The position numbers and the translations under genes are program-made. Of a stretch of DNA of 64,000 nt, positions 16,711-57,593 are shown in pieces. Location of the stretch: the NCBI GenBank assembly GCA_040437565.1, contig JBDOQK010000016.1, forward strand, positions 496,001 to 560,000. Direction: 5' to 3'. Below the pieces are notes generated by a model. That model made no database searches. It worked only from the letters and a program-made list of their open reading frames with translations, and was not told the DNA's origin. How positions within the stretch are numbered: the stretch's first letter is position 1; every line of letters starts with the position of its first letter. Origin of the DNA: Albugo candida (taxonomy: Eukaryota).

Positions 16711-19334
16711 TCAAATAATCATTGTCGATGATGCGATTGTAGCAGTATTGCTGGTGGCATCGTCTTCTGCTGTTGTGTTCACTTTTTTGTTCAAATGATT
16801 GGGAATTGCAGAACTGATTGAGTATACATCTGCTGGTAACAAAAAGAAGCTCGAAGCCTTCATTTCCAAGTCGTTCCGATCTTGCTCACTCTCATAAGTG
16901 AACCAGGAGAGAGCGATCTCCGAGTCAGCGTTTGTAGTCTTTGAACGATGAACACAGCTTCTATGAGCGTTTGGACATGACTGAAAATCGCTTTCCATGA
17001 CGCACAAAATCCAGTTATTCACATCCTTCACCACAGACCCACAGATTCCATTGGGATTATCTTTCCGGGCAGAATCGATTGAAATCGAAGAGAATGGGAA
17101 CAACACTTCAGCGTACGCTTGTGCTTTGTTGCGAGCATCGGAATGCTTTCCGTTGTTATGGAGAAAGTGGTGACATAGTTGACGCCATTTGAACTCGTCA
17201 TTTGACAGAGCTAAGCAGCGGGTATCCGACGTGCAAATTGAGTCATAAGCGCGTTTGAAAAAAACCGATGCAGATTCCACTTGCGGGATATACAGTAGAA
17301 CACATTTGGCAAGTCTTGATAATATCGCTGCATCTTGTTCGAAATCGGTCCAAAACCATTCCGGTGACGCATTATTTCGACTCCTTTCCCATGTCACACC
17401 GTCTTCAAAAATGCCTTTCTTATTGATATAATGACTCAATTGATCCAATAAGACTCTCCGAGTGCTAAGGTACTCTTCACTTTTCATCGTATTGGCATGA
17501 GACGGATGTCGCAACGTATCATACTGAGATCCACTTAGCTGCTCGTGAACATTAACGATCATGTTGTTGACTCTGCGTCTTCCAACTGAAGACAGACCTG
17601 TTCCATGAATGCGTGGATCGAGCAGTAATGCGACAAGTTGATGTTCTTGGATAGTTTCTTGAACGATATTTAACCACGAAAGCTCAAACGCGTTGATTTC
17701 TTCACTTGTTAATACACTCGGAATCTCATCCAAAGACGTTTTAATGTCTCGCGTGACGGATAGAATCCACAGCCAGCATTCCAGAATTTGACTTGATGAT
17801 ACTTGTAGCGTTTCGCTTGCCGCAAAAAGCCACACAAACGGTTTGAAAATTTGATGAAGTGCAGACAAACGATACCAAAAGTGATTTTCTTTTTGGAAGT
17901 AATCCATCACACGCTTTCGATGTTGACCGATGCATTGATCTTCATTTGTGTGGGCCAGATAGTCATCTTCGAGTAACGCGTTCTGAAGCTCTTGGTGTAC
18001 ATTCAGCAGTCTATTGATCAGTATTGGTACGTATTTCCACGAAAGATGACCGCGTTCATCGTTTTTTTCGATCTGAAATTGCAAAAAATGTCGACAACAA
18101 TAATCAGAGCCCAATGCGAGTGATTCCTTGTACACAAGCGCTTCTTGTTGTTCCAATGTGATCAAAGAATCAATGAGTCTGCTCGCCTCCTCCAGAGTTG
18201 TGATTACGCCAGAGCTGGATGCTAGTAGCTTTTTCAACATGTAAAAACTCTGTCGGATCAAACAGCTTCCAAATAACTTGATACGTCTCTCTTCACCAAG
18301 CATATCGGTCACTGATGTGCACTTTTCAGGAATGCACAAATTGACCATACAATTCTGCGATATTCGAACTTCCAATTCAAAAAGCGCTTTTTCCAATGTC
18401 AACCGCAGTCGCTGGCAAGGCGTCTCAGATGATGGGTTTGAGCTTTTACAGGAGGTCCACAATTCGAATTGGCGGCGATCGTCAAAGAGCATGACATCAA
18501 CGCTATCATCCTTATAATTCTGTTGTATTAACGTCAAATACTGAGTTTTCTTGATAAGATCTTCAATATCACTATCCAATTGCTTGTAAAGTGTCACCAA
18601 TCCATCGACCGGATCGATCCATAATCCATGACCGGAATGACAATTTGTATCGGAAAGAGTAGTGTTCCCATGCTTTCCATTCACAGGCGAGAGTCCCGTA
18701 ATTGAGAAAGTGAATTTTTGGAAAGCTTTACGAAGGTCTTCATCTTTGAGGAAAAAAACTGGAAGAGTATTGGTCGCACATACGCTGATAAATCGCTTGA
18801 CAAAGAGATTCCAATGCTCAAAGAAACCGGTGGACATTAATTGAGATTCAGAATGCATCAATCCGTTGTCGTTCATATATGCGACCAAATTGGCGCTCTT
18901 AGGGTCAGAGTTGAGCTTCATTTTCTGTTTTAATGGAAACGTTGTGTTTGTGGGACTTATTTCTCGGGTTCTTTTTGTGTGTTTTTCTCGTTCACAATCT
19001 AATTGTACGTTTTCAGGCGCGTGCGGACATTTGAAGAGAATATGGTGAGCCATACGGGAAGCAACGCCAGCGCATCGAAAAGAGCAGAATTTGCATTGTG
19101 CGTGCACTTTATTCTGTTCCATTCGAAGTTGAGAGAAATACTCCCACACAGCACTGGGACGTCTTCCAGACCGCTGGTGCGATTTCTTGAAGGTTTCTAA
19201 TGGAGTTTCGACATTAGGCAGCACGTGAGGGTCAACTAAAGTGATTTGATGAGCTAAAGTATGGAGGACGGGGTCGTTAGATACGATAGAAATCTCGAGA
19301 AAAGGAGTGGCTTACCTTTTGACGATGCATTCAT
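16711..19334 (-). CDS. BED zinc-finger protein derived from a hAT transposase (probably domesticated)
   Basis: zf-BED SAVWEYF...CKFC...HILFKC, hAT-like ALLLDPR and hATC-like WFW...LSRLAKCVLLYIP. Predicted exon 1 (ATG 19334, MNASSK) plus intron 19254-19315 is in frame with the 837-aa ORF. Confidence 0.75.
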
Positions 19335-19915
19335 TTTAGACGTTCTTTGTCAAAATATATAGTATAAGAGACATGCGATTAAGTACGATTGAATATGTGG
19401 TTGCTATTTCATTTAGAACGACAATGACAAGAACTTGGCTTGCGGCACGATACAATTCAGTTTGATTTTGGCACTCACTGTGGGTAAAGCTGCTACCTTT
19501 AGTGCTTGCAGTGTTGGGGACGTATACTGTATATTCTTCCAGCGAGCGTAGATCATGAGACGGCGAACGGATGACTTGACTGCTATCCTTCTATATACAT
19601 GAAGGTATGATGTTGTCGTTTCTGACTGAGTTGAGTTGGAACAGAGAATTTGCACACCGCAAAACGACGTCAGCATGCAACTTTGGCCGATTGTTTCACT
19701 GATGGGAACGATGGACAGCATTCATTCCAAACATCGCACCAAGAAACCGGTTTGCGCACTCATCATACTTTTTGTATCCAGATCGCCGTGATCGATGTGG
19801 TACCCGGATACTGTAATGGTTCTTCATGTAATTAACGCTGTCGGCCCGGATGAGAGTCGAAACGAATACGAATAGAACGCCCTTGTAATTGTTGCATGTT
19901 GTACTTACATTTGAG

Positions 19916-20386
19916 CAAAACGTTGCTTTGACACTATGCATCTCTCGTTGCTTTCCTCCAGTGCGCAGGACACCAAGATCTTTGAATATAACTGCTTTTT
20001 TAATTAGGTTAACTGTCAAGTTGTTTTCTATAACTAAATACTATTTATCTATGAAAATCTGCATTATTGGCTTGTGGTAGACTTCTACTATAACTTCCAT
20101 ATCACCCGCATATTTCACCTGCCGCTATTTTTGGATCTCACGGTACACGTTGCCGCCAGATCTAAAAATAGCTCTTCCGCATNNNNNNNNNNNNNNNNNN
20201 NNNNNNNNNNNNNNNNNNNNNNNNNNNNNNNNNNNNNNNNNNNNNNNNNNNNNNNNNNNNNNNNNNNNNNNNNNNNNNNNNNATGCCCACCTCCAGGTGC
20301 TGTTTTTGACCAAGTCGAAATTGTCAATTAAAGGAAGATCGTCTCAAAAATGTCATCCTCAGTGCAGGTCGCTCCCACCCGCATGT
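19916..20386 (+). repeat. Second copy of both ends of the 35627-37846 element, interior in gap 20183-20282
   Basis: 19916-20182 matches 35627-35892 (near-identical from ~20003). 20283-20386 is identical to 37687-37790. Confidence 0.9.
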
Positions 20387-20459
20387 ACGTGTGCTGTACG
20401 AAATCAATGAGCTGCAGTCACAGCTAATACATATTTCTTCGCATTTGAACCCAACTCAG

Positions 20460-21185
20460 GTCACTCACAATATGCAAAACCAAACGGGTCGGTGCTAAAA
20501 AAGGTATTCATTTATATCCGACACTTTTCGATACGAATTCAGCTCGTACATCACTTCTTAGGCTTTGAGCTTTTGGAAAAAAGCGGATGCACTGAAAATG
20601 CGCTTTCAAGCAATGCTAGGTGAAATCCAGAAGGTGTACCTTCAAATGTAGAAAAGATTGGGCTCAGAGAATTTGTTCATGTGTCAGACAAAAACAGCAA
20701 TGTCCAATGAAGCAGCAGAAGCTTTTTTTTCACTTACTCAGGCTCAGTACGAAGCGGAAGATTTTCGTAATAAGGTGATCGAATCAGTTTCGACGGCATA
20801 AATTTGTATGCGGAATCGGATTGATAATGTCGCTGGAGTGAAACTCCCGGTGTTCACAGAGGTCGAAGTCAGCCGCGATAAGTCTGACAATATCGATCTG
20901 TCGGGTGGCGGAGGAAAAATCCAGCTATGTCGAGAAAAGTTTCGAACTCTGCTCAGTGCTCTCATCAAATTGGCATCTTTACAGATTGGAGACTGAAAAT
21001 GAGATACGTTTGCGTTTCTTACAGCTTTTCCATGAGAAGACTTCTTTTCTTACATTGGATGAAACTCTGAAAGTCACAAATCGCAGAGTCAACGCACTTG
21101 ACAATTTATTATCCATATTTGTTCTCTTATCACATATTTTGAACAAAATTTCTTCGTGTAGGTAACAATCCCACGCATCGTGAGG
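20460..21185 (+). pseudogene. ATP6V1D: V-type ATPase subunit D pseudogene (intron-containing, truncated)
   Basis: Reads GAKKG/FELL..ADALKMRF, NVAGVKLPVF, LIKLASLQ, TSFLTLDETLKVTNRRVNALDN, VTIPRI. There is a frameshift in the A-run at ~20577, an in-frame TAA at ~20799, and the C-terminus is missing. Confidence 0.85.
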
Positions 21186-21433
21186 TCAGTACACTTGGAA
21201 CCAATAACGACGATCGGGTGAATCTGAGATTGATGGCGAGTATCCGCTGCAATCAATTGTAGCGTGGGATATTGGTTTTTTCGGATTCAAAAAAAGCAAA
21301 TCATCCAGGTCATTCTTAATCAATAATGCCGCTTTTAGTCGTGGTAGACAACTCGACCGTACTCGATCACATAACCTGCGTGCAGAGAAGCACGATTTCA
21401 TGGCTGCACAGTATTTTGTTGTATGAGCTGATT
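21186..21433 (-). repeat. Inverted diverged copy of ~5735-5987
   Basis: Reverse complement aligns with 5735-5987 (shared IKNDLDDLLFL.PK.PISHAT..CSGYSPSISDSPDR). Confidence 0.9.
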
Positions 21434-21533
21434 NNNNNNNNNNNNNNNNNNNNNNNNNNNNNNNNNNNNNNNNNNNNNNNNNNNNNNNNNNNNNNNNNNN
21501 NNNNNNNNNNNNNNNNNNNNNNNNNNNNNNNNN

Positions 21534-21915
21534 CAATATTCTTGAGCAGTACTATTGGAATACGAAGGCTCAATCGCATCGGCAACCACCGTGTACTAAT
21601 GCCTTATGTCGTGCATCTCTGCTTTGCTCCATGCAGTGGTGGACTACAGCGGACGAGTATCAAGGCTGTCTCAATACAACAGAGTTTTATCTTTCGACTT
21701 CAACATTTTCGACAGCTGATGATAATTTGAACCAAAAGCATGATTCTTCCTTCTTTGGAATTTGCGTCACTTTCATTCTGACGGTCGTTCAGTTCGGAGT
21801 GAGTATACTGGTGCTGGGTGGAATTTACATAGGAATACATGCTCAGCTTTATGCGAGTGGAACAAGGCTAAGAAATGTGGGAAGTGCAAACAATGAACGT
21901 TGCCCAATGCTCTAG
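21534..21915 (+). CDS. 3' end of a second sphingomyelinase-like phosphodiesterase paralog
   Basis: Identical to 4935-5068 (reverse complement), then a diverged but open frame to the stop. The 3' flank 21915-22185 is paralogous to 4405-4687. Confidence 0.65.
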
Positions 21916-24900
21916 CGTGAGATGGTATAGCTGTATTCTCAATCATATATATCTATGCTGCATGTACGCAGTAATCTATATTTTGCTTTTCCAGACGCTC
22001 GGATCATGGCAAAGTTGATGACTCTTGAATGTGGCTCGCGAGGAACGCAACGGAATCGGGTCATACATGCAGAACAACGATCATTCGATGCCATCGCAGC
22101 AATCCGTTTTTTTATTTTGTATACCTGCAACCTGAGAACATTTCAAGCATACTGAGTACATTGACATCAAAACATCAAACCTATCTGATACTTGGCGTCG
22201 CTTATTGAATGATCTTGGTTCAGCTTTAGCTAGTCGTTTTTCGGCGAAACGCACCGACAGTTGCACCAGGGAGTGATAGCAAGTCCGAAAGTGTTTGTCT
22301 TCTTCAACGTTGTATTAGATATCAATGTCGTCAAAAGGTGACGACTGTAGTATTGCTTTCGGCTGACAAAGTCCTGTGCAGAAAGAAGTTTAGATACCCT
22401 CAAATCTCTCATATTGAATCGTTAAGGCGCTCAATCAACACAAAGAACGGAAACGCAAGTGGAAGATGTCCGTTCACGACATCAAGCAAACACGAAGTAC
22501 GCGATCACAACTCGGCACTTAAAAAACACAATCAGAATCAGGAGGTACGTCTTCCCTCGGATGTTGCAATAGAAATGGCACGCTTTGATTTGGATAAATA
22601 CCTCAATGAGCTTACAAATTTCTCACTGACTTGAGAAAAAAAGTATCTTCCGGAGTCGATGTTGTCAACAGCCTCAGGTTAATACGTTATTGTGGAGCTC
22701 CTCAAAAGGTTATTTGCACTCTATCCTGTCCTTGTTTGTCTTTCACTTGAAGGATGAAAAAGATGCACAATAATGACGATCGATGTTCCATAATAAAAGT
22801 AGGCAATGTTGCTAAGGTAAGGTGGTATCACAGATTGCAATTATCTGTTTGACAAGTACCAAAAAGACGGATTGGGGACGCAAAGTGAAAGTCGTAAATC
22901 TGCAGTATGGTGAGGTAGAGCGTCAGCAAGCGTTCGTCTTGAATTGCGTGTGAAAATACAACCAAAAGAAGTGCCAAACAACGCAACGTTTCTAGCGACA
23001 AGCAGAGAGTGGAATGGTGTGTCCTAACTTGGAAATCTGGAACTAGGTCACACGGAATTGAGTTCTTCCAAACAAACAGTTGGCATGTATCGTGACGGAC
23101 ATGATGTTATTGTTACTAAACTGGTCGGAACTTTCAATTTGACCGACAGCTTAGTTTTCTACGACCTCTAGCACTCTGTATTTGTCTTTCCAAATAGAAT
23201 TGGACAAATGAGTAAAAACACAGTCACCCTGTAAGCGTTTTTGATGTTCAAACACACGCAAGATGACTGAAAACCACAAGAGCTTTCTGAAGAGTTTCTG
23301 CATTCCATCGTTGTAACAAAGAAAACTTAGCTTTCACGTGGTAAATATGAATTAATATGGCTGTTTGGCATCGTTTTGCCATGATGTTCGCACTTCACGA
23401 CGAATGTGCGTTTTTCCGTCAAGAAGGAAGCATGCTCTGAATTCAACTAAAGCCGTTCCTACCGAAGTAGTCGCATAATTTACAGAGGCGATGATGCTAC
23501 AGTTAGAGCATCAAAAGTGATTGGTGTACGTCACTACAATACTCGTAAAAGCTCGCAATACAGTGGCAGGCAATTACCAAGGCTCCAAAGCACATTGGTT
23601 TTTGCGTGCATCAACTCATCCTTCACGTACGACTTCAATAGAAAGTCGCGATCGTTCATATTATCTTTTCCAAGGCCACGTAGCAATTTGAATTGAATCT
23701 TAATTTCCGTCGCGATTGTGCAGTGTTCTCTTTTTTTGCAGTTGACTACGAAACAAAATATGAGGCGGGAGATAAGCAAATTCGGAATACGATGCAACAA
23801 ACCTTCCAGAAGCTAGACGATGATGCTGCTTTAATAATGCGGACAAAAACCACTGTCCAAATTATATCCTTCTCGAGTTAGTCAGGAAAATTGTAGCATT
23901 GATTAGTGTCTATTGAAATGGAAGCGCGCCATGTATATCCTCGCGATAAGCATGTCATTATTTTGAATACAGTTAGTCGCATCCTATGTCTCCACAGGAT
24001 GTTGTGAGCTCAATGCCATAGTTTTGTCGTCGCGTTCTGACTAGCATTGACATCTATGCAGAATCAAAAAGCACACTCTTGTAGGCTTGCCAGCGCTCTT
24101 GTTTGTTGCTACTATTTGATTTTTTTCGCGGTGACTATTTGAAGTGGAATGAACCAGCTTGCGACAAGATATTGTGTGATGTAGTTCTTTTCATATCGAT
24201 GTTTCCAATGGTGCATTTACGCATAGTCGATTGCAAAAAAGTATACATTGCTACAAAGTAATCATCTATCGTAATCTTCCCATGTCGCTCTTTCCGCTGC
24301 ATTTGCTGGGGTCAATCAAAATTTTGTACTCCGTGTATCGACACGTGAACGAGTCGTGTATATCTCGCGTTACTCCAGTGATAATGCGAGCCTTGCACAA
24401 TGGTTTCACGGAATATGTTGACACAAACACAATATTTGGACAAGAGTGTATCCACCAGTTTTGAAGCTTCGACAAGTTGATATAACGTTCTCAACGTGTT
24501 TCGACCCATCAATTTCGAAGCTGCTTCATTGGACTTCTCCTCGTCTCACTTTACACAAGAACTTGACATAGATTCCCATTGCCAAACATCCAGAATCGTT
24601 TCCTCCTTCCTTGCCCCCTTCTACCAACTCGTTCGTAACACCGAAAATTGGTATAATACCAGACCTTTTCTTGGTGCAATGTAATCATTACTAAGACCAG
24701 ACAAGATGCCTTCGGAACACTCAAAAGCCGGTACGATGCTTTATGAACAGGTCGCCACATAGGTCTACAGGCTCAGATGGAACTTGACAAAAGATAGCCT
24801 GCAATTTGCCTTATTGTCGGTATTGTTAGAGAAGTAGGATCAACCCCGCCACGTTTGCTGAAGAAAGACATTCTCTTAGAGTGTATACTCCATATTGCTA

Positions 24901-31572: not shown

Positions 31573-34500
31573 TTATTCCTCCAAATATGAGATATCGTCC
31601 CATGGATGGCGGTAGAGAGGTTGCTTCAATCGTTTTTGGTCCAAAAAGTGGCCAATGAAGCCCATACTTCGACCTAATACAAATAACCCATTCAAACATC
31701 CATTTTGGATCTGTTCTGTTGCTTCCTCCAAAGTAAAGGCTCCACAGTTACGCAACAGGTCGACGAAACAAACAGCAATGCAACCATCCACATTGAGTAT
31801 CAAATTGCTACGTTTCTTCGTCGTCACTTGTTCGACCTCGAGAGCAAATTGTAAGATATCTGTTGCCGGGAAATGATGAAGTGCGTATTCTTTGACGATT
31901 GTCACTCTTTTGTCTGGATTTGAAGTCGATTTGATGCGATGTCCGATACCCATGATTAATTCTCCTTTTCGTTTCATCTCTGCTACAAACTCTGCTGCCG
32001 TGACTCCTGAATCAAATGCGTTGGTGAACATTTCAGCAGCTTTATCCAATGCACCACCAAATCTTGGTCCGATTGTCAGCAGTCCAGATACAAGTGAAGA
32101 AATCAAATCCTTTCCGGCCCGGGCAGTGACAATAGTATTGTGTGCTCCAGCAACAGCAGGCCCATGATCAGCTGTGACCATCAAAATCATCTCAATAAAC
32201 TTTGTGGCGTATGAAGGCAATCTTCGTTTGAACCACAACAAACCCAGAACACCACCAATACCGAGGTCTTCTTCAAAGATCTTGGATATCGGCATTCCTG
32301 CATATGTCAATTCTTCACCACGGTCATCTGTGATAGAAGAGATAAAGTTTGCCGGTTTTCGAATAAGTCCGAGGTTCTTTGCCCACGCGTAATCCATCGG
32401 AACTTTGGGGACAGGAACTTCAGGTTTTGATATGATGACGCCTTCATCGACCAAGTTTGTATACACTTTGTGAATCACCTTTCCAAACTGATCGAATGTA
32501 TCGGGAACGATCGCACCTGCTTTGGCGAGAGCCCCATTCTTAGCAGACGCAGTTTCAGACTCGCCGGACGCACATGCGCCCGCATGGCCAAACTGCACTT
32601 CAAACGGGAAGATGTTTGCACAAGTTCCAATGCACCACGCAATTAACGGCTTTTTGATTTGTCCATTTTGAAGAGCACGACAAACGTCAAATTCATCGGT
32701 TCCTCCAACTTCTCCGAGCAAAACCATCATTTTGATGTCCGGATTGGCTTCATACCGCAACAAATGTTGAATAAACGTTGAACCAGGGTACTTGTCTCCA
32801 CCGATAGCAACTCCTTCGTACACTCCGTCTGTCGTCTGTGAAATGATATTATTCAGTTCATTGGACATGCCACCTGATTTCGATACATACGCCACACTTC
32901 CAGGACGATATAGCTTGGAATGAACAATATTATCAAGCATTCCACCAGTATTCCCAATACGCAAGCATCCCGGCTTGATGCCTCCCACAGTAGCTGGTCC
33001 AATAATTCCCACATTCTTCTCATTTGCTTTCTTTATTATCAATCTCGTTTGGGCTTCTGGAACTCCTTCGGCAATGATAGCATGCGTTTTGATGGTATCT
33101 GCGTGCTGTAAAGCTTCCATCGTGGAAGAAAATACAGAACGGAAGGATGAGAAATTGACCAGTACACTCACATCAGGATACTTCTTGACTGCTTCTTTAA
33201 GGTCCTGAAACACTGGAATTAATCGTTCGCCAGTTCCCCAGTAGAATTTGAGGTAGTGATTTGGTGCGAATGGGAAAATCAGCGCCGCAACACTCGGATT
33301 ACGACGTTTACACAAAAAGTCGAAATCCAACATTCCTTGAACAGCTCGTTGCTGTAAACCATACACAATACAACGAGTATCTTCCTGCAACCGAACAATT
33401 TTCTCGTCTTGGAATACAGGAGAGTGTGCTAATTGTGTTTCCACGGCACCGGAAGATGCAAAACTTTGGTCCGTTGGTGGGTCGGTTCCATCAGTGGTAT
33501 CCTTGCGCTTTTCTGCTGCAACTTGAGCGTTGCTTACCGCAACACTCTTGATCGGTTTCTTGGAACTCGCAGTTTCTGCGGGATTTGGCGGTTCTTGTAG
33601 ACCCAAAGCCATTGGAACAATCGCAGTGATATGCGTCTCTGGACCAAAAACATCAATTGGAACTCCAGTCTCTTTACCGACTTCACGCATCTGTGTGAGC
33701 CCCTCCTGGCAATTCGGACCACCACGTCGAACCCAGATGTGTACTTTGCGATCAATCAGTTTGGATTGGTATTCTTTGATGGCGCGTATAATTCCTTTGA
33801 ATGTCATTGCGACATCTGTGAAATTTGCGATACCACCTCCAATGATAAGTACTTTTCCACGCTCATCATACTGCCGTGTCATCAAATCCAGGATTGTTCG
33901 GGCGTACTGATACGTGTGGGCCTCACTTGGCGCACCTGAATACTCACCATAATTGGCTAATTCATGGCCAGCACCCAAGTCTGCAATCGTATCCGCATAG
34001 ACAACAGAAGCTCCTCCACCGGCAACCATGGTCCAAATACGACCTTCCTGGTTCAATATCGTTAATTTTAATGATGCACCTGTCTTGGAATCTAAATCGG
34101 CGATGAATTCTTCTTCAGGTAATTTGGCTCGACCGAATGCTGGTGGAAATTCTAAATCATCACCCCATCTCTCACCAACAAGAAAAGAAGCTGTCTCGTC
34201 GAGTTTGGCAGCCAGATCCAATACGCACAGCTTTTTATTGACAAGTACGATTGGATTGATTTCCATATACACAAAGTGCAATTCTCTGTACGCATTGAGC
34301 GATTTCACAATAAAATTTGACATGAGCTCTTTACGCTCATCCGGCAAATGGACCAACAAATTAGCTGTGATTTCTTTGGCATTGACTTGAGACTCAATAT
34401 CCACAAGTAATCGAGCTGCTTTCTGGTCTACGTGGCCCACATCAACTCCACCTTGATGATAAAATAAAATCTCATCGCCTTCGCGTTTTGAGATAATGCA

Positions 34501-34884
34501 AAGATAATGTTCATCCGTTGGTGCATGCTTTACAAAAGGCTCCACGATGAAATGAGTTAGGATTCCTGTGATTTGCTCGACTTTGATCGGATGATTCGCT
34601 CGTTGACGAATCCATTCTTTAACATCGGTCCAGGTAGCGTTAAGTAGCAACAGATTGGCCTTACCACGCCGTTTTATTAATTGATCGGGTTTCACGACAA
34701 GTGTGGTCTCTCCACTGGTAAGCCAAGTGTTTTCTTGCTCGAGTATGGTAAAGTATCGTTCCTCGCCTACTTTTTGCAGTTCTGGAGCGCTGATTTGCAC
34801 ACAGCGTGTTTCTAGATTAAAGTCTTTTAATGCTTTCACAAGTATTCGCTTTCCATTATACTCTCGAATGGCTTTAGCTGACAT
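31573..34884 (-). CDS. ACLY: ATP-citrate lyase, single-chain (fused) form, intronless
   Basis: [34 protein letters not shown] (phospho-His) and the citrate-synthase-like end [11 protein letters not shown]...GIGHRIK...LYRHPWDDI. Confidence 0.97.
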
Positions 34885-35075: not shown

Positions 35076-36164
35076 TTAGGCACGTATGCCATTTCCGGAA
35101 ACTTGGAACGTGCTTCAACGTTCTAATTTTGAATCAATATGAAAAAATATATAAGATACGTAGTGAAGACTCTTTCTGTATTGTACTTCAAGCTCTAAAA
35201 GAAAGTGGAAGATGTCAAGTTGAATAGATAGTCATTACGGTGCGTCTTTGGAGACACTTGTGGGGATGGAATGTTCCAATACTGTGATTAAAGGAGAATA
35301 GTGCATTCACTTGTGACAAAGATGGCGATGTGAGCTCACTACACTTGAAAAGATCTCTATATATGTGTGTATTTGAGATACTGTCGCATAAGGGAAGAAG
35401 TTTGAGCGATTTTCGGTGAAAGAATTACAGGCTTCGAACATTCACTCTTATAAACTCGGAACGATGTTAATTTATAAATCTAGCGAACGAGAATCACCTC
35501 CGACTTCCTGTCGAAACATCAGCGATGTGAAATTCAATTTCTATAAGTTGAATACCGTTTGTGTGTCATGAAATCGATGATGAGTACTGTTCAGATGGGC
35601 TCTAATGATCAGCACAATCGTAAATACAAAAATAGCTTTGACACTGTGTATCTCTCGTTGGTTTCCATCAGTGTACAGCACACCAAGATCTTTGAAATCA
35701 AACTGTTTTAAAATTAGGTTAACTGTCAAGTTGCTTTCTATAACTAAATACTATTTATCTATGAAAATCTGCATTATTGGCTTGTGGTAGACTTCTACTA
35801 TAACTTCCATATCACCCGCATATTTCACCTGCCGCTATTTTCGGATCTCACGGTACACGTTGCCGCCAGATCTAAAAATAGCTCTTCCGCATCATGAGTT
35901 GCACTTATCAATGAGTACATCTCATTTTGCGTGTCATTTGCATCAATTTGATCACTGCAAAAGACACTCAAAATGAGATCTACTCATCGATTTCAACTCA
36001 TCATCCGGTTCCGCTTCCGATTGCTCGGAAAGCGCCGCCTTTCGCAATCGACGATGTCTCCAATCAGCATCCACTTATGCTAAGAGACTTGCAAGGTGAA
36101 GTCGGTATGTGTCAATATTCCTTCGTTTCTTTGTCTCGAACGAATTACTAACTATTTTATCAAA

Positions 36165-37268
36165 ATGCAGCGAGAAAGAATGACCACGACGGCCAACGTG
36201 CCCAACAGAAATGTACCAATGCAAAGAACATCAACGTCGACTCGGAAGCGTGTCGGCGGCGGATACGCGATACAGCCGCAAACGGGAACATCAGCGCCGC
36301 GCGCCATCCAGCAGCGAGTCAATTCCGTCACGCGTGCAGCACCAATAGCAGTAAATCGACCGCGTCTCAGTGACTACAACCAGCTGAAGGAAGAAAATGA
36401 GCAGCTGTTGCGCTTGTTAAATGAGAAATCAGCCCAGCTGGAAGGTGCAATGTTCGAGATCGGCGGACTCAACTCAAAAGTTGTTGATCTTGAAACCCGA
36501 CTGGAGAACAATCAGAAAAGTACGGCGGAAAAGGCAACGGAGATCCAACATGCGTCCGAAAGCTGCGCGACTAAAGTCAGCGAATTGGAAATCCTCAGTC
36601 GGGAATTACAGGAAAATTTGGAATTGAAAGAATCCCAACTAGAAGATGCCGAGATAGCGATAAGCCAGCTCGAATCTACTCTGGAGTTCAAGTCGACTCA
36701 AATCTGCACACTTCAAGATGTGTTGGAAAAGTGCGTCTCCGATGTAATCGAACTCGAAACCCTCAGTGAAGAACTGATCGAAACCCTGGAGTCAAAAGCA
36801 GCTGAGCTTGAAGATGCAAAGAAGACGATATGTACTGTTGGAAGCTCAGGAAACCGGCTGAACACCGGTATTGATGCGGTGGAGTGTCCATCGGCGACAC
36901 CCAAAACGGATGACAGGAGAATCATTCAAGACTTATTACAAGATTTGGGGAGCTTGACGACCCAACTACACGAAGCGCAAGACCAGATCAGCAAACTTGA
37001 AGCAGAACTCCAAGTCTTCGGTATGCGACCCGAGAATGGATACGGGAACACGGCGCATTTTTCAACTGCGGAACCCGAAGTGGATGGAAGTGAAAAAGCG
37101 CTACTCGAAAAGGTCAACCAAGATCTCTTACAAGCGTTGGAACGAAAAATGAGGCAGTACTACGAAGCACAAGATCAAGGCCGTGATCTTAAAGCGGAAG
37201 TTGAAGACCTAAAGAATCGGTTACAGAAAAACTTTCCGGATGTTGCAAAGTCTCGAGACAAGCTATAG
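36165..37268 (+). CDS. Uncharacterised coiled-coil protein (~367 aa) inside the element
   Basis: Intronless ORF with a basic low-complexity N-terminus and long L/E-rich heptads. No enzymatic motif recognised. Confidence 0.7.
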   Translation: MQRERMTTTANVPNRNVPMQRTSTSTRKRVGGGYAIQPQTGTSAPRAIQQRVNSVTRAAPIAVNRPRLSDYNQLKEENEQLLRLLNEKSAQLEGAMFEIGGLNSKVVDLETRLENNQKSTAEKATEIQHASESCATKVSELEILSRELQENLELKESQLEDAEIAISQLESTLEFKSTQICTLQDVLEKCVSDVIELETLSEELIETLESKAAELEDAKKTICTVGSSGNRLNTGIDAVECPSATPKTDDRRIIQDLLQDLGSLTTQLHEAQDQISKLEAELQVFGMRPENGYGNTAHFSTAEPEVDGSEKALLEKVNQDLLQALERKMRQYYEAQDQGRDLKAEVEDLKNRLQKNFPDVAKSRDKL

Positions 37269-37298
37269 TGGCAGCTCATTCGCCCAAAGCTCATTCAT

Positions 37299-37586
37299 CT
37301 GATGACCTCATTACGTCATCGGATGTGGATGTGCGGAACGATACCTGTTGACCTCATTACTTCATCGGATGCGGATGTGTGGAGCGATACCTGATGACCT
37401 CATTACGTCATCGGATGTGGATGTGCGGAACAATACCTGATGACCTCATTACGTCATCGGGTGTGGATGTGCGGAACGATACCTGTTGACCTCATTACTT
37501 CATCGGATGCGGATGTGTGGAGCGATACCTGATGACCTCATTACGTCATCGGATGTGGATGTGCGGAACAATACCTGATGACCTCA
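37299..37586 (+). repeat. 46-bp tandem array (6 units plus a partial unit running into a gap) with a 138-bp higher-order period
   Basis: Unit ctgatgacctcattacgtcatcggatgtggatgtgcggaacgatac starts at 37299, 37345, 37391, 37437, 37483, 37529 and 37575. Variant order is A-B-C-A'-B-C. Confidence 0.97.
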
Positions 37587-38000
37587 NNNNNNNNNNNNNN
37601 NNNNNNNNNNNNNNNNNNNNNNNNNNNNNNNNNNNNNNNNNNNNNNNNNNNNNNNNNNNNNNNNNNNNNNNNNNNNNNNNNNNNNNATGCCCACCTCCAG
37701 GTGCTGTTTTTGACCAAGTCGAAATTGTCAATTAAAGGAAGATCGTCTCAAAAATGTCATCCTCAGTGCAGGTCGCTCCCACCCGCATGTGATATGCCCC
37801 CGCTTGCCACAAGCTAGGCATTTATTTTTCCTTTTTTCAGGTTGATGCTCTAATGCTCAGCACAATCGTAAATATAATATATGTTCATATTGTATGTGTT
37901 GTGATGCTGACGATGCTTCCGAGAGATCGCGTCGTCATAGGCAGAAAAACATATTCCAAGCACGTGATTGGTAATTTATCAATTCCAAGGCACACGGTCC

Positions 38001-40455
38001 ATGGATATTCGATCGTTTTTTCAGGATAGAGACACCAATAAAAGCTGTAAGGAAAATAAATCCTCAGATATATCGTCCGCTTCTACATCGAATAAAATTC
38101 AGATAAGCTGTCCACTAAAAGTAACTAGACCACGGCGACAACGCAAGGAACTTATTATCATTAGTAGTGAAAGTGAAGGTGGCGAAGCAATCGAAGAACC
38201 AAAAGCAAAGAAACAAAAAGTGGTCAAGTCGAATGCGCTAATTGAGAATGTGACATCAAAACTTGCATCTTCTTGCCAGTTAGAGCGACCGAAGCCACAT
38301 CCAAATTGTTTGAATGGAAAGACCTTTGCGCTGAGTGGCATTTTTGATGATCTCTCACGCGATGATTGCATTCATTTGATCAAAGTATGCGGGGGATCTA
38401 TCAGCAATTCTGTGACACGAAATACAAATTATCTGGTTCTAGGAACAGAATTGGAGAATGGAGCCGATCCGACAACCAGTATGAAATACAAGGAGGCGAT
38501 GAGGAAAAATGTGCAGATTATCAGTCAACTCGAGTTGTACGATCTCATCAAAAATGCACCAAAAACTTCCGTGAAACAATCGGACGAAACTACTAGGCAT
38601 CAGGAAGCACTGTACGTTCTATGTCCAATACAAAGTGTCCTTTGTTCTCATCATGATGCTATTTTAGTGTAAATAAAGCATCTATGAATTGTCTTTGGGT
38701 CGATAAATACGCACCAAAATCATTTGACAACATGATTGGAAATATTGAGTTAGGTAAACGATTGGGCCAGTGGTTGAATGACTGGAACAACATTCACGTG
38801 AAGAAAATCAAAAAGGTGCCACCAACCAACAAACTATCCGAAAATCGCGGTGCCAAATGTGTCCTTCTATCGGGTCCGCCCGGTATCGGTAAAACCACAA
38901 TAGCTACTCTTGTGTCAAAGCATTGTGGATTTGAGTGTATCGAGTATAATGCAAGTAACACTCGAAGCAAAAAAGTTCTCAAGGCAACTTTGGGTGACAT
39001 CCTTGGATCACAAGCATTGAATCTACATCCACGTAACACGCAAAAACAAGCTGGGAAGAATCCGAGACCAGCAATGCAGTTGTCGAGGCGAGTCGTCATC
39101 ATGGATGAGGTGGATGGAATGTCTGGAGGAGATCGTGGAGGAACTGCTGAATTGATTCAATTGATCAAACATTCTAAAACACCTGTTATCTGTATATGTA
39201 ATGATCGTCAATCAACAAAAGTACGCTCACTGGCTAATCATTCGTATGATTTGCGTATGCGACGACCAACAAAGACGCAAATCGCCAAACGTTTGTTGGA
39301 AATCGGTATAGAAGAGGGTCTGGAAGTTGAGAAAAATGCAATGGAAGAAGCGGTTGAGCGTTGTGGCAATGACATCCGTCAGTCACTAATGCAAATGCAA
39401 AAGTGGAAAATGATTACCAATAAAGTGACGTATGCCGATTTGGTTGGACAACAGCCACATGAAAAGGATGATGTGCTTCGATTGAATCCCTTCAGTGCCA
39501 CTCAACAGATCTTCCAGCAGAATCTCACTTTTGCAAAACGCAATGAAGCCTACTTTGTTGACTACGATCTATTGCCTCTAATGATACAAGAAAACTACGT
39601 ACAAAGTATAATGAGCACACGCAAAACCAGCGATGAAAAACTGAATGCAATCATGAACGCAGCCGCTTTCATCGCTGAGGGCGATATTGTCAGCAAATAT
39701 GTGCGAATGCAACAACGTTGGGATTTGCTCACAAAACAGGCAGCTTTGAACGTTGGAGCTTGCATCTACGCCAGCGGATATCTAGGACACCCAGAATTCT
39801 CCAAATGGCTGGGGAAGAATTCAAGCGCAAACAAATCGAAAAGACTGCTCAGTGAACTCTCTCTTCGAATGCGAACGCATGCATCCGGATCACGGGAAGG
39901 TAAGAAAACGTATTTACAATCATTCTTGACAGCAGATCTAATTGTATGCTTCGGATAGTTATCCGTTTGGACTATGTGCCGTATATGAAAGAGATATTGT
40001 TGACGCAACTCGCATCCGGTGAAGATGACTGTATTAGTGCAGCCATTGAGCGTTTGGATGCTTGTGAGATTTCGAGAGAAGATCTGACCGAAGCGATGGA
40101 GTCATTCAAATTTCCCGGTATCAAACGTCACTCTTATGCGGATTTGGATTCCAAAGCCAAAGCGTCATTCACGAGATCGTACAATAAGACAACCCACACA
40201 GCGCAAGCACTGGTGGAATTAGCGTTGACGAGCGGCAAGAAGACACGTGCGACGGTGTCTGCGCCTCAGAATGAAGAACTACCGATCCCATCAGATGCAG
40301 AAACTGATGAAAGCGATGATCCAAACAAGGATGATGCGGATCTAAGTAAATTCATGAGAAATATTAAAAAGCGTAAAGCAGCAAAAGCTGATCCGAAAAG
40401 TAATCGTCGCAGTGGTCAGAAGCGCAATGCAAAATCCAACACGAAACGCGTGTGA
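38001..40455 (+). CDS. RFC1: Replication factor C large subunit, 3 exons
   Basis: MDIRSFF start, BRCT (CLNGKTFALSG), LWVDKYAP, Walker A GPPGIGKT, MDEVDGMSGGDRGG, ICICNDR, KWLGKNS and KASFTRSYN. Confidence 0.95.
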
Positions 40456-40830: not shown

Positions 40831-43800
40831 ATGAGCGATCATTCTAAAATTCCCATCGAAAGCCAGACAGCACCAAACCACGAGCTTTTTTCGGAGGAAA
40901 TGGGTGTACACGAAACAACGCCCCCTTCCCAGATAAAGCGGTCGATCGACAATCATTCGCGAATATTCCAAAGTGTGAAGGAATATGTCAAGGAAACGCA
41001 AGGGAAACGTGTGATTGAGACCGTTCTTATAGCAAACAATGGGATTTCAGCGGTTAAGGCGATTCGAAGTATTCGAAGTTGGTCGTATGAGATGTTTGCG
41101 GACGAACACAAAGTTCGTTTTGTGGTCATGGCCACGCCAGAAGATCTTCGCGCCAATGCGGAATACATTCGGATGGCGGAACATGTTGTGGAGGTACCTG
41201 GTGGAGCTAATAATAACAATTATGCAAATGTCGGACTTATTGTGGAGACCGCAGAGCGGTATGAAGTCGATGCTGTATGGGCTGGATGGGGACACGCCAG
41301 TGAGAATCCTCTTTTACCCGATGCGTTAAGTAATACGGAGCGCCAGATCGTCTTCATTGGACCTCCTTCTCAACCGATGCGAGCGTTAGGCGACAAAATT
41401 GGGTCGACTATTATTGCGCAAAGTGCTCGTGTACCAACTATTGCGTGGAATGGAGATGGGATTTATGTCGACTACAAGGAAAAGAATGCGATTCCCGACG
41501 AGATTTACCAGTCTGCACAGATAAATAATGGAGCTCATTGCTTACAAGAATGTAAACGGATTGGTTTCCCTGTGATGATCAAAGCCAGTGAAGGAGGTGG
41601 TGGTCGAGGTATCCGTAAGGTGACGGAAGAATCACAAGTTCACAACGCGTGGGAAGCAGTACGGGGTGAACTACCAGGATCTCCCGTTTTTGTTATGAAG
41701 CTTGCACCAAAGTCACGTCATTTAGAAGTACAGCTACTTGCCGATGAGTATGGTAACGCGATCGCATTAAGTGGACGAGATTGTTCTGTTCAGAGGAGAC
41801 ATCAGAAAATCGTTGAAGAAGGTCCCGTTCTGGCACCATCACCAGCTATATGGGGAGAAATGATGAAGGCAGCCACACGACTTGCTAAAGAAGTACAGTA
41901 CGTTAATGCTGGCACGGTCGAGTACTTATTCAGTGAGCGACCAGAAGACCAAGAGAACCCATTCTTCTTCTTGGAACTAAATCCCCGACTACAAGTCGAA
42001 CACCCTGTCACAGAAATGATCACACATGTGAATCTTCCAGCTGCTCAGCTTCAGGTTGCAATGGGAATTCCGTTGAGTTACATCCCAGATATCCGTCGTC
42101 TTTATGACCACGATGGATTTGGCAAAGAGGCGATTGATTTCGATACTGAACAGCAACTACCACCTCATGGGCATGTCATTGCAGCACGAATCACTGCTGA
42201 GGATCCAAATGCAGGATTTCAACCAACTAGTGGAGCGATCAAGGAGTTGAACTTTCGTAGTACACCCGATGTTTGGGGATACTTCTCAGTTGACTCTTCA
42301 GGTTTGGTTCATGAATTTGCCGATTCGCAAATTGGGCATCTATTTGCCTGGGGTACAACACGTGACAGAGCAAGGCAGAACATGATTCTGGCTCTGAAAG
42401 AATTATCGATACGGGGTGATATTCATACTACTGTCGAGTATATTGTGAATATGATGGAATCGGAAGATTTCAGGCTTAACAAGATCGATACCACTTGGCT
42501 CGATGATCGAATTGCACGGCACAAGGAAGTTCGGTTGCAAGGTCGACCTGATCCTTTGATGGTTGTCATGGTAGGAGCTGTCTGCAGTGCGTATCAATCC
42601 GCCAATGCACGCATTGAAGAATTTGTAAGTCAATTAGAGCGAGGCCAGCTGCCTTCCAGCTCCTTACTCAAGCAATGTGATGATCTCAAATTGATTTACG
42701 AAGGTATCAAGTATCAGATCAAAGCCCATCGCAGCGGGCAGATTTGGTTCACCCTCGAATGTAATGACTCCTACGTTCAGGTAGAAATACGTACTTTATC
42801 TGATGGAGGGTTCTTGATTCTCCTAAATGGCAANNNNNNNNNNNNNNNNNNNNNNNNNNNNNNNNNNNNNNNNNNNNNNNNNNNNNNNNNNNNNNNNNNN
42901 NNNNNNNNNNNNNNNNNNNNNNNNNNNNNNNNNTCTCAAATTGATTTACGAAGGTATCAAGTATCAGATCAAAGCCCATCGCAGCGGGCAGATTTGGTTC
43001 ACCCTCGAATGTAATGACTCCTACGTTCAGGTAGAAATACGTACTTTATCTGATGGAGGGTTCTTGATTCTCCTAAATGGCAAGTCACACGTTGCGTATG
43101 CAACAAAAGAAGCTCAAGGACTACGTCTTGTTGTAAATGGGCACACGTGTGTGTTTACGAACGAGTATGATCCAACTCGTCTGGTCACCAATACAGCTGG
43201 TAAGCTGGCTCGCTATCTGGTCAATGACAATTCAAGATTGCGTCGTGGAACCCCGTACGCTGAAATCGAAGTCATGAAGATGTACATGCCTTTACTCGCA
43301 CAAGAGGACGGTACTATCAAATTTATGAAATCAGAGGGGGCTGTGCTCGCTCCCGGTGATTGTATCGCTATGATGGACTTGGATGATCCAAGCTGCGTAA
43401 AGAAGTCCGAGTGTTATTCTGGCAAAGTACCGAAGAAAGAAATGGCCCCTGAGCATGCAATGGAACGAAAGAAACCACTACACAAATTTAGATGGTCGCT
43501 TGAAACTATCAAGACCGCCTTGGATGGATTTTACGTCCCAGATGACTTACTGGACCGCTCATTCAACGATTTATTCGATTCACTCAACAATCCACACTTA
43601 CCGGTTGAAGAAATCAAAGAATATCTGTCTCCTCTGGCGGGATTGATACCCCTAGAGTATTTTGCTAGAATCAATGATGCACTGCATCAATACCGAATAA
43701 AAGTGAGTGACTCATCCGATTGCAGAGTTGAAGATTTCAATGTAAACGATGTCGAAGTCATCCTGCACCAGTACAAAGCAAGCCTGGATAATGATCGTGC

Positions 43801-52075: not shown

Positions 52076-52981
52076 TTACAGAGAGTACCCATGAGCTGTT
52101 CCTGGCAAATCTTCCGATCCAGATGGAGCTTTGAAAGGCCCTTCATCGTATTGACGGAAAGAATTTTGTGCTTGCGGAGCTGGAGGTGCTTCCGATGGCG
52201 TTGGAATCGGCGGGGACGGATTGGTGGGAACTGGCGATGGAGAAGGACCGGAGGGAGCAGGTGGTGGGGGAGAGGGAACATTCGGAGGGCTTTTAGTAAT
52301 ATCCTTTCCGGGTGGAGGATTGGGTCCCTTTCCCGTCGAATCAGTAACCTGAGCTTCCCAGCATGTGCTATACGTGTCTTCTTTGCTGTTAAAACTCCAT
52401 AACCAGTGGAAGCTATAGGTACCAGGAGCGATATCTCTTTCTAGTTGGAAACACATTGTGCATAATGCTCTCTCCATATTTTCACAAAATCGCGGACAAT
52501 GCTGAAATCCGTTATAATCCACGGTACCATATTTATGCGCTCTATTCAAGTGATCATACGTTTTGGACACGCTTGCGTCGTCATACAGCGGATGACGGGT
52601 GATAATCACACCATAATCCGGCACATATGGAGTCGTACAAGTCGCAGCAACATGGTTTTTCGGTGGATACGCAAGACATACAAGCTGACCAGGCTTATAA
52701 ATTGCCATTTCGATCCCATTGTAATTATCATCGGCCTTGTTGCATTGACATCCATTGGCACTCCTATAATTGAATCCCGTATCAATTCCAAACCCCTCTC
52801 GAGCCTGACGCTGCCCACATCGCGGACGACCGTGACATTTGCCCGCATTCCAGACTTCTCCGTCGACCGATCCATTCTCAAATCGATAATCAGTGCATTC
52901 AATCCACGAATGCGATTGAGTAAAGTGTAAAAGATGGATACACAGGAAGACACCCAAACGTATCGAAGCATATCGACTCAT
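52076..52981 (-). CDS. Secreted Cys-rich protein with N-terminal His after the signal peptide (LPMO-like) and Pro-rich tail
   Basis: Signal peptide ...FTQS|HSWIECTDY, then PPKNH and GTYSFHWLW...YSTCWEA. Clear paralog of 55162-56088. Confidence 0.85.
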   Translation of the reverse strand: MSRYASIRLGVFLCIHLLHFTQSHSWIECTDYRFENGSVDGEVWNAGKCHGRPRCGQRQAREGFGIDTGFNYRSANGCQCNKADDNYNGIEMAIYKPGQLVCLAYPPKNHVAATCTTPYVPDYGVIITRHPLYDDASVSKTYDHLNRAHKYGTVDYNGFQHCPRFCENMERALCTMCFQLERDIAPGTYSFHWLWSFNSKEDTYSTCWEAQVTDSTGKGPNPPPGKDITKSPPNVPSPPPPAPSGPSPSPVPTNPSPPIPTPSEAPPAPQAQNSFRQYDEGPFKAPSGSEDLPGTAHGYSL

Positions 52982-55161: not shown

Positions 55162-56088
55162 ATGAAAACGATCAACTTTCGTATCATTGGTCTTGCATTC
55201 GCTTGTCTTGACCTCGTGCGTCCAACAGTGTCTCATTCGTGGCTTGAGTGTACTGATTATCGATTCCAAAGCGGATCAAAGGATGAGACTGTGTGGAACA
55301 AGAACAATTGCTTTGGTCATGCGCGATGTGGCGCTCGTCAAGCTTCTGCTGGCTTTGGAGTCGACACAGGGTTTAATTTCCATAGCGGTCAAGGATGTCA
55401 ATGCAGTGAAGGACCCGATAATTATAAAGGCGCAATAATGGCCAAGTATTCTCCGGGTCAGCTTGTTTGTTTGGCTTATCCGCCGAAAACTCACGTCGCA
55501 GCGCCCTGTACGAATCCGTTTATACCTGATGCAGGAGTACAGATCACGCGCTCGGCATTATACAATGACGGTGTGGTAGCAGCATCGTACTCCCATTTGA
55601 ATGGAGTTCACGAAAAAGGTGTCGTCGATTTCAAAGGCTTTCAGAATTGTCCAAGATTTTGTGAGGATATCCAAGGAGCTTTGTGCACAATGTGTTTCCA
55701 GTTGGAGAATAATATCACACCCGGAAAGTATACTTTTCATTGGATTTGGTCATTCAACTCGTTGGAGGATCAGTATTCGGCTTGTTGGGAAGCAGAAATT
55801 GGCGAGCCCGGTTCAGTGACAGTTGCAGGGACGGCTCCATCCAATGTGTCGGCAACCATTGAAGCATCTCCAGCAGTTGTTCCCGTCGATACAAATGCGA
55901 CAGCCGTTATCCCAATTCAAATGCAAGTCAATAGCTCCGCACCTTCTCCTTCTTCCACAGGGAGTGTCACTGTGCAATCACTTCCCTCGCCAACAGCAGT
56001 CTCTAATCAATCGGAAACTCCAATTTGCCGAATCGATCCATCGACTGTGCCTGGCCACGAAGCAAGCGCAGGTGGAAATTCTTATTGA
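55162..56088 (+). CDS. Secreted Cys-rich LPMO-like protein, paralog 2, with Ser/Thr/Pro-rich tail
   Basis: Signal peptide ...PTVS|HSWLECTDY, then PPKTH and GKYTFHWIW...YSACWEA. Confidence 0.85.
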   Translation: MKTINFRIIGLAFACLDLVRPTVSHSWLECTDYRFQSGSKDETVWNKNNCFGHARCGARQASAGFGVDTGFNFHSGQGCQCSEGPDNYKGAIMAKYSPGQLVCLAYPPKTHVAAPCTNPFIPDAGVQITRSALYNDGVVAASYSHLNGVHEKGVVDFKGFQNCPRFCEDIQGALCTMCFQLENNITPGKYTFHWIWSFNSLEDQYSACWEAEIGEPGSVTVAGTAPSNVSATIEASPAVVPVDTNATAVIPIQMQVNSSAPSPSSTGSVTVQSLPSPTAVSNQSETPICRIDPSTVPGHEASAGGNSY

Positions 56089-56248: not shown

Positions 56249-57327
56249 TCAGTTAGGATGCATTCTCAGTACACAGTCAAACACTCCAACCTCGGGACTT
56301 TTCATTGCTTCAGCCTTTTGACGCAAATTGATCCATTGCCGTCGTCCCAAAGTACATTTTTGCATTGTTTCTTGAAGGCGAAAACACGGGAATAATAACA
56401 GCGGGAGTCGAGTGTTTAACGCTTTAAACTCTTTGTAATCGAGGATTCCATCATTGCTAAAGCGCTTGTAAAGCAGAGTGCTCGATTCTTCACAGAGTGA
56501 GATAAAACGTACCGATCAAATACACTAAAAACGTTTTTCATGTTGCCCGGGAAAAGTGAGCCATTGGGATTGACCAAAGCAGTTAGAGGCTGACACTCTC
56601 TGCATCGAATAAAACCTGATCGTTCAGTATCAAATATATTGAAAGCGACTGCATCATTTTGTTGAGAAACGAGAAAACAACTCCAATCATTCGCTTACAC
56701 TGTAACATTTCTTCGCGACTAAATGTGCAAAAAAGTATCATCGCGTGCACAAATTCTTCCAAATCGATCTGAAGAGCTCATAAGCGTTATGACAAATCAC
56801 AGAAAGAGAACGAACGAACCGTTCCGTCATTATTCATTTCAATCATTTCAAATAAGCGCTCCGAGAAAACTGTCTTTGGTTCTTGCAAAAAGTCATAAAA
56901 TTCCCAGTAATCGATCGAACCGCTTCCGCTGTTATTCTCAGTGTAAGCTTTCAGTATGGAATGCAGCAAACAATCGAAAACGCACTCAAAATCGATTTTG
57001 TCAAAACACTTTTTCAGCTTTTTGAGTTCCCGCTGGCTCACTGAATAGAGACTTTATATTCCCACAATACAAATCGTAATTCGTAGGAATACCTCGCATC
57101 CGCATGGCAATTGAAGCAGTTTGTGTGCGAGACAGAACGATATTTGGATCATTTTTGGTGTATAATGGCGTGCTATCAATTTTCTTGAATGATTTTGGTC
57201 TTAAAAATGGCATAATTTTTTTCTTTCCCGTTACAGAAATCCTTGGAAGCGTGGTAGTAGAGTCTTTACGCGAAGGCGTATACATATTTCTTCGAGTCAG
57301 ACCGCTCGGTACATGAGAGAAAGCCAT
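56249..57327 (-). CDS. EF-hand calcium-binding protein, multi-exon
   Basis: FDKID..GSGSIDYWEF, EMNNDG, FAFNIFD and DGILDYKEF...FPCFRLQETMQ, spread across short introns. Confidence 0.65.
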
Positions 57328-57593
57328 TTTCTTCTTTGCTGACCCGATCGTGTCTTTTGTAAACGCCTCCACGCTAGAAATAGCTGAGAACAAAAATGGA
57401 TCAAAGCACTCGGATAACGATCTGTCGTCGTCCCAAATTGTCCAAAATCAAAAAACTGAGTATCACGTGGCACTCAGTTGTCCAGCTTTTGTCNNNNNNN
57501 NNNNNNNNNNNNNNNNNNNNNNNNNNNNNNNNNNNNNNNNNNNNNNNNNNNNNNNNNNNNNNNNNNNNNNNNNNNNNNNNNNNNNNNNNNNNN

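Follow-up and report, generated by a model that had tools for sequence, protein, structure and literature searches.

The 64,000-nucleotide stretch analyzed here (the window; Albugo candida, GenBank assembly GCA_040437565.1, contig JBDOQK010000016.1, positions 496,001 to 560,000 of the forward strand) contains, between the genes for ATP-citrate lyase (ACL) and RFC1, an insert that carries a copy of a coiled-coil gene and is bounded by a 28-bp direct repeat. Our analysis indicates, with a probability of roughly 0.7, that this insert is the product of templated double-strand-break repair in a single event. The sequence data themselves show the composite anatomy of the insert, the microhomology at its junction, the heterogeneous ends of the gene family to which it belongs, a near-identical copy that is spliced, and purifying selection in the family. 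The assembly comprises 36.6 Mb in 7,503 contigs, and the window includes 12 gaps of 100 N each. The parts of the insert, in positions of the window, are as follows:

35594..35598, plus strand: GATGG, directly before the left repeat; the same letters span the end of the scrap of Mutator-like transposon (MULE) listed below (junctions compared with 13 MULE loci)
35599..35626, plus strand: left copy of the 28-bp direct repeat, the presumed duplicated target site
35627..35634, plus strand: 8-nt filler; extended by the 3 nt that follow, it duplicates a 10-mer from the small palindrome of the cargo (35874-35883)
35635..37790, plus strand: coiled-coil gene copy, truncated on both sides relative to sister copies, its full length hidden by a gap
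37587..37686, unstranded: assembly gap; loose contig ends hold at least 164-218 extra unique bases before 37687
37687..37790, plus strand: 3' flanking sequence of the gene, which matches 20283-20386 exactly and contig C94 at 98%, ending abruptly at 37790
37793..37847, minus strand: 55-bp MULE scrap, antisense zinc-knuckle codons from inside a decayed transposon
37847..37874, plus strand: second (right) copy of the 28-bp repeat; RFC1 begins 126 bases downstream

Read from left to right, the insert thus consists of the repeat, the 8-nt filler, family sequence (35635-37790), 2 nt, the 55-nt MULE scrap, and the repeat again. The scrap resembles 14 other matches at 83-98%, all of them inside members of a distinct ∼3-kb repeat family that encodes decayed MULE transposases, in which two halves of the Pfam MULE domain, each below cutoff, lie on either side of a stop between inverted termini. 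At the right junction the scrap ends in GATG and the MULE continues with G; the target has GATGG just before the left repeat. The filler 10-mer occurs three times in the window (20164, 35628, and 35874), and the filler may have been templated from the cargo's own palindrome. We read the insert as a repair product because it combines two unrelated donors, GATG(G) microhomology, an 8-nt filler, and a repeat found at 1 of 33 family copies, and this reading is favored further because the intron and upstream region are kept and a poly(A) tail is absent. Microhomology, a target-site duplication (TSD), and filler, with no poly(A), characterize a class of repair-mediated duplication (PMC2671141), and microhomology and filler without poly(A) are what we find at these junctions.

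In agreement with the original prediction for this locus, made from the sequence alone, we found no terminal inverted repeat (TIR), transposase, or reverse transcriptase (RT) in the insert. The terminal hairpin and T-tract described in that prediction fared less well: the fold is weak (z = -1.8; 10/200 shuffles as good), and both features are incidental because they are the reverse strand of MULE zinc-knuckle coding sequence. The MULE family was observed at loci L092-L097 (∼3 kb, ∼80% identity between copies, inverted termini); L092 additionally holds a separate repeat of ∼365 bp with at least 27 matches at 90-95%.

The direct repeat was borne out as 28 nt with 1 mismatch, and can be extended to 31 nt with 2 mismatches. 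Allowing ≤3 mismatches, the 28-mer is found genome-wide at just these two sites (control matches, 0), and the chance expectation of such a repeat in the window is ∼4e-6. To examine the junctions we used assembled contigs of four of 20 matching sequencing runs; the four come from four studies. The flank continues 38-61 bases beyond the left repeat into the insert in all four runs, and in three of them contigs connect 53 bases or more of the insert (the MULE scrap) to the right repeat; the fourth run, X7, is without cover at the right junction and past 37947, which proves nothing. In two haplotypes bridging the left junction, 6 and 10 letters of ∼1,060 are unlike those of the window. This is close to the ∼1% divergence reported between A. 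candida races (PMC4384639), so the insert is older than the race split. A duplicated target site around inserted DNA is a plausible, and the simplest, reading of these junctions. Metagenome scans with the repeat and with the RFC1 N-terminus returned nothing usable.

DNA, protein, and motif searches place the coiled-coil family at ∼40 sites in the assembly, some of which could be haplotigs or gap-split halves of one copy, so that the insertion is not the two-copy element it was first taken for. There is no common terminus: similarity between copies stops at scattered positions both upstream and downstream. When we compared 2.5 kb upstream with 6 kb downstream of 33 copies, the best flanking repeat scored 25 at this insert and ≤14 at 30 other copies, in a comparison in which TSDs of 9-10 bp would go unnoticed; long flanking repeats at loci L147 and L187 proved to be overlaps of tandem duplications. 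Searching 1.84 billion proteins with a family profile yielded 50 matches. Among the 20 looked up, 16 had species names, 6 of them A. candida and 10, all gene models, A. laibachii, with one further cluster counted under A. candida via a member; the remaining matches had no species name, apart from one weak fungal coiled-coil match. Members of the family include:

CCI40384.1, CCI50014.1: A. candida, uncharacterised proteins
CCA18153.1, CCA21104.1, CCA15010.1: A. laibachii, uncharacterised proteins

These Albugo records belong to the family by the profile search (E 1e-161 to 1e-6); they are gene models only, and the returned names mention no hairpin, array, or function. On this evidence the family appears to be restricted to Albugo, the white rusts, and multi-copy in both species. 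Many copies are frameshifted or cut. The ratio of nonsynonymous to synonymous substitution (dN/dS; substitution counts in the coiled-coil part) is 0.29-0.51 in 11 of 12 pairs, which are non-independent, the twelfth pair having merely 6 differences; these ratios point to purifying selection on the family. We found no published description of the family or its motifs, although subscription papers and the supplements of Albugo genome papers could hold repeat libraries that contain it. At least 9 family places lie within 280 kb of one scaffold (G000:C6:465000-745000), another subfamily is clustered on C16, C4, and C61, and in one copy (L079, G000:C151:1-2250) the coiled-coil region is expanded to many internal repeats of ∼165 bp.

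The family member nearest to the insert lies 15.7 kb away on the same strand:

19873..21180, plus strand: closest sister copy, made up of a 5' part, a gap, and a 3' flank; it overruns both insert ends and has no flanking direct repeat

The lack of an equivalent repeat here had been noted in the original prediction, and its further claim that both ends of the insert recur at 19916-20386 holds in part: 35635-35892 and 37687-37790 recur, but the final 57 bases (37791-37847) do not. This copy continues 900 bp in the 3' direction past the insert's stop, 95% shared with contig C94, and extends 5' into sequence common to other family copies. Compared with the insert, it has 2 differences in 181 bases beside the gene (99-100% alike), against 18 in 85 (79%) in the outer part, a pattern that conversion would produce. 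In three DNA runs, contigs fork at 35635-35640 and the 100 bases that follow have about twice the depth. Depth cannot be read as copy number, and this is a hint of another identical copy, absent from this assembly. The donor is uncertain because of the outer divergence of the 20-kb copy and this sign of an unassembled one. Later gene conversion is likely to have homogenized the insert and its sisters. The 20-kb copy is itself included in a patchy, large inverted duplication (79-99%; 4253-8708 against 13074-22336), which surrounds two long open reading frames (ORFs) without a Pfam match (10092-13400 and 16711-19122); parts of it recur on contig C94.

The sequence of events that we propose would have begun with a staggered break, or with break repair that re-copied 28 bases, in the ACL-RFC1 promoter region; staggered breaks can yield duplicated ends (bioRxiv 10.1101/2025.09.20.677491). 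The free end would first have copied a few bases of the palindrome that lies within the cargo, and next 2.2 kb or more of a sister coiled-coil gene. A template switch to a dead MULE would have added 55 bases, after which the end would have re-annealed to the target via GATG and left a 28-mer on each side. The hairpin upstream, the intron, the open frame, and the 3' array of the gene would all have survived the pasting, with gene conversion keeping the copy nearly identical to its sisters. We infer the pathway, synthesis-dependent strand annealing (SDSA) or synthesis-dependent end joining, together with the order of the template switches and the once-single state of the 28-mer.

Several points weigh against this account. 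No empty site (35626 joined to 37875) appears in the contigs of the four runs, which drop rare variants, so that the entry of the cargo into a once-single 28-mer is something we infer, and the unusually long TSD named in the original prediction is no more than plausible. No contig in the runs examined spans the gap at 37587, and gaps, together with the flank limits of the repeat search (2.5 kb upstream, 6 kb downstream), could mask repeats at other copies. The match between filler and 10-mer was spotted only post hoc. A 28-nt repeat and an insert of >2.2 kb both exceed the ranges given in PMC2671141 (TSDs of 4-21 nt, inserts up to 619 bp, confident donors within 5 kb).

The original prediction favored a different origin, a non-autonomous mobile cassette with the 28-mer as a long duplication or att core. 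Such an element would resemble a Helentron, a Crypton, or a Pack-MULE and be moved by an enzyme encoded elsewhere; we consider this improbable. The ∼40 dispersed copies, many of them broken, the internal hairpins and tandem array (as in DINE-1), and the unique repeat at the ends would all suit such an element, but its ends are common to no other copy, the 32 other copies lack a comparable repeat, neither a TIR nor a subterminal inverted repeat pair joins the ends, and the right end is foreign coding sequence from the interior of another transposon; purifying selection and the presence of the family in A. laibachii, both typical of host genes, also argue against it. The Helitron signature is 5' TC, 3' CTRR, and no TSD, and the insert begins with CA, ends with TGAT (AT..TTTG on the minus strand), and has the 28-bp repeat. 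For a cut-and-paste transposon, miniature inverted-repeat element (MITE), or Pack-MULE, no inverted pair links the ends, the termini differ between copies, and the long repeat is present at 1/33. For a Crypton, no recombinase domain was found in the 367-aa protein of the insert or in 8 relatives, an autonomous partner elsewhere not having been searched for.

The start region and ORF of the gene bear on a second alternative, and comprise:

36077..36104, plus strand: upstream ATG in a conserved 15-nt block; when spliced, it opens a 73-76-codon frame that overlaps the main ORF out of frame
36105..36170, plus strand: 66-nt intron (GTATGT..TACTAAC..CAG) with GT..AG ends and a TACTAAC branch site
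36165..37268, plus strand: 367-aa ORF, or 362 aa from ATG 36180 if spliced

The coiled-coil ORF is as predicted, but the gene is not intronless: one contig of run X15 (depth 17.6) omits exactly 36105-36170. This run was taken as RNA by guess, which the intron joint supports, and loose contig ends in it point to a second donor at 36096. Splicing from either donor deletes ATG 36165 and leaves ATG 36180 behind several upstream ATGs; the ATGCAG at 36165, usable as start or acceptor, is retained in 12/12 aligned copies. Because the spliced contig carries G at 36100 and the spliced and ORF contigs of X15 differ from the window (7/932), the spliced transcript may derive from a sister copy or allele and not from the insert itself. 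One X15 contig reaches from within the insert into RFC1 (37761-38300), which hints weakly at read-through, or at RFC1 transcripts that start within the insert.

At its N-terminus the protein is disordered and Arg/Thr-rich, with a KRVGGG motif; long heptad helices with 3.5-residue periodicity follow, and there is no hydrophobic signal, membrane stretch, or enzyme fold. Pfam gave nothing beyond sub-cutoff coiled-coil matches for this protein and 8 relatives, the ESM Atlas gave generic, uninformative coiled-coil clusters, and Foldseek with the protein model gave nothing at E ≤ 0.001. As a tentative guess, the product could be a tightly controlled coiled-coil scaffold that acts inside the cell, and the downstream palindrome array could serve as clustered bZIP-type sites.

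Capture by an RT, in which an L1-type endonuclease makes a staggered cut and the cDNA switches between a long gene transcript and MULE RNA, is no more probable than the mobile cassette. Target-primed insertion gives duplications of variable length and chimeric inserts, and the insert is transcribed, or at least covered, in X15. The DNA nevertheless retains the intron, the insert includes 250 bases that precede the hairpin, neither end has a poly(A)/poly(T) tail, and the T-tract, being MULE coding sequence, ends 7 bases short of the repeat. A simple retrocopy or an insert mobilized by a long interspersed element (LINE) was rejected on the presence of the intron and the absence of poly(A); a TSD together with poly(A) is the combination tied to retrotransposition (PMC2671141).

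Two conserved non-coding features accompany the family, a foldback upstream of the gene and a palindrome array downstream:

35834..35882, unstranded: small inverted repeat with 20-nt arms (80%), upstream of the large foldback
35887..36008, unstranded: large foldback with 36-nt arms (35907-35942 and 35956-35991, 89%) and outer arms (35887-35901 and 35994-36008)
37299..37586, plus strand: 46-bp array running into the gap; each unit holds a family-wide 18-bp palindromic core

Both the hairpin leader and the 46-bp array of the original prediction are present. The foldback has a folding z of -9.6 on the plus strand (0/200 shuffles) and -12.6 on the minus strand. In 13 copies, 82% of arm cells pair, with 16 two-sided changes compared with 8.1 when shuffled (0/500); across 23 copies (gapped; one core with a broken arm excluded), a copy's own arms match at 0.79 and crossed arms at 0.74 (0/20,000 permutations). 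Both statistics ignore relatedness among copies, and arm-to-arm repair of a DNA palindrome would yield the same matching. Wobble-type differences favor the minus strand (78 vs 32). A stable stem with co-varying arms is as expected of a microRNA (miRNA) or hairpin-RNA precursor; Rfam returned just two sub-threshold miRNA-type matches, and A. laibachii possesses Dicer-like and RDR genes (PMC4791657).

The 18-bp core, with 5-bp arms and an 8-nt centre, is found family-wide with spacers of differing length. It has 82 exact matches genome-wide (control, 0) and is repeated 2-17 times on the 3' side of family genes at ∼30 family loci. Of 11 further core clusters, 7 follow a family ORF at its 3' end and share its strand, 3 come just past a gap, and 1 is situated 4 kb past a family hairpin. 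A divergent subfamily has one core in frame inside its coding end, and two peptide matches to the core are read through in a gene model of A. laibachii; the array appears either to stem from the family's coding end or to have its sequence in common with it. A conserved AT-rich block ∼60-100 bases past the array is probably a 3' processing signal. The whole array folds no better than shuffles (z = 0.1 and 0.6), so any structural role of its RNA depends on the closing pair beside the core, which is Watson-Crick in 32/56 compared with 21 when shuffled, relatedness uncorrected. The core contains two CRE-like boxes, which we predict to bind bZIP proteins; Phytophthora infestans bZIPs bind ACGT-core palindromes (PMC11267843). 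In one family copy (L076:5700-9700, G000:C61), a ∼4-kb copia-type gag-pol element lies within the palindrome array.

These features invite a third alternative, even less probable than the two above: a selfish, drive-like (wtf-like) family that spreads by ectopic recombination via the palindrome array, with the insert as one such event. In fission yeast, CRE-like M26 sites activate recombination, and the other strand of the core starts with what we take to be the heptamer of the M26 hotspot. A genus-restricted family at ∼40 places with many pseudogenes, fast turnover, and local clusters would fit this picture, as would the signature of conversion, the conserved foldback, and the alternative splicing at the start codon. 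However, ordinary lineage-specific families display such a pattern too, dN/dS is below 1 and not above, and the membrane segments known from Wtf proteins are missing. Nor is there a dispersed flanking repeat such as tRNA genes: little flank outside the gene unit is shared (20 loci), one tRNA occurs in 38 family loci and none in the window, and 5S was scanned at this copy alone. Just as unlikely is the fuller version, in which an undescribed selfish system of white rusts would combine two start-site isoforms, self-restraint by a hairpin RNA from the leader, and a CRE/M26-like array drawing recombination for ectopic copying, so that the locus would preserve one copying event.

Finally, exact duplications, most likely scaffolding overlaps, flank four gaps of the window (8123-8488, 42684-43083, 56721-58366, and 62919-63916), and an artefactual origin of the repeat therefore had to be excluded. 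This least probable explanation is largely refuted: although the insert itself holds a gap, the two repeat copies differ by one base, they lie 160 and 1,960 bases from that gap, and each junction is present in contigs of independent runs.

The genes on either side are:

31573..34884, minus strand: ACL, left neighbor of the insert
38001..40455, plus strand: RFC1, right neighbor of the insert

They are arranged head-to-head, with a spacing of 868 bp once the insert and one repeat are subtracted. Elsewhere in the window, 52076-52981 and 55162-56088 are related inverted ORFs (67% DNA identity) with weak DUF7492 matches.

Taken as a repair product, the insert would be a clean natural case, from an oomycete, of a break repaired from templates, notable for its two donors and for the unusual length of its duplication. 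Although of modest interest, it would also illustrate how lineage-specific genes can disperse in Albugo without a transposase. The gene family matters more: ∼40 genus-restricted loci with two conserved non-coding devices, foldback and palindrome array, provide directly testable starting points for work on how small RNAs and bZIP proteins may control genes in an obligate biotroph, and there is a slight chance that this is the first drive-like family of an oomycete.

The insert can be compared with known systems. Like the non-autonomous Helentrons DINE-1 and HINE (PMC4067079), it has an internal tandem array and hairpins and no transposase. Those elements carry subterminal inverted repeats of 11-15 bp, a 3' stem-loop, and a TT target, none of which we found; in addition, the insert shares no common ends with other copies, has a long duplication where they have none, and carries an ORF under selection. 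The Cryptons of oomycetes, including Albugo (PMC3212892), resemble it in having terminal direct repeats and no TIR, but their repeats are family-wide and 4-6 bp long, in contrast to 28 bp at one copy here, and the insert has no tyrosine recombinase. With the wtf meiotic drivers of Schizosaccharomyces (PMC9562144), the Albugo family shares genus restriction, multiple copies, pseudogenes, and non-allelic recombination; the likeness is in dispersal pattern alone, with no similarity of sequence or fold, no 5S- or long terminal repeat (LTR)-type flank seen, and no membrane segments. The repair-mediated duplications of PMC2671141 differ in scale and setting, with repeats of 4-21 instead of 28 nt, inserts of ≤619 bp instead of >2.2 kb, and donors at <5 kb in vertebrates, compared with a nearest candidate donor at 15.7 kb and a second donor in an oomycete. 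They share with this insert microhomology, filler, and the absence of poly(A), and presumably also a target duplication and the copying of a linked locus.

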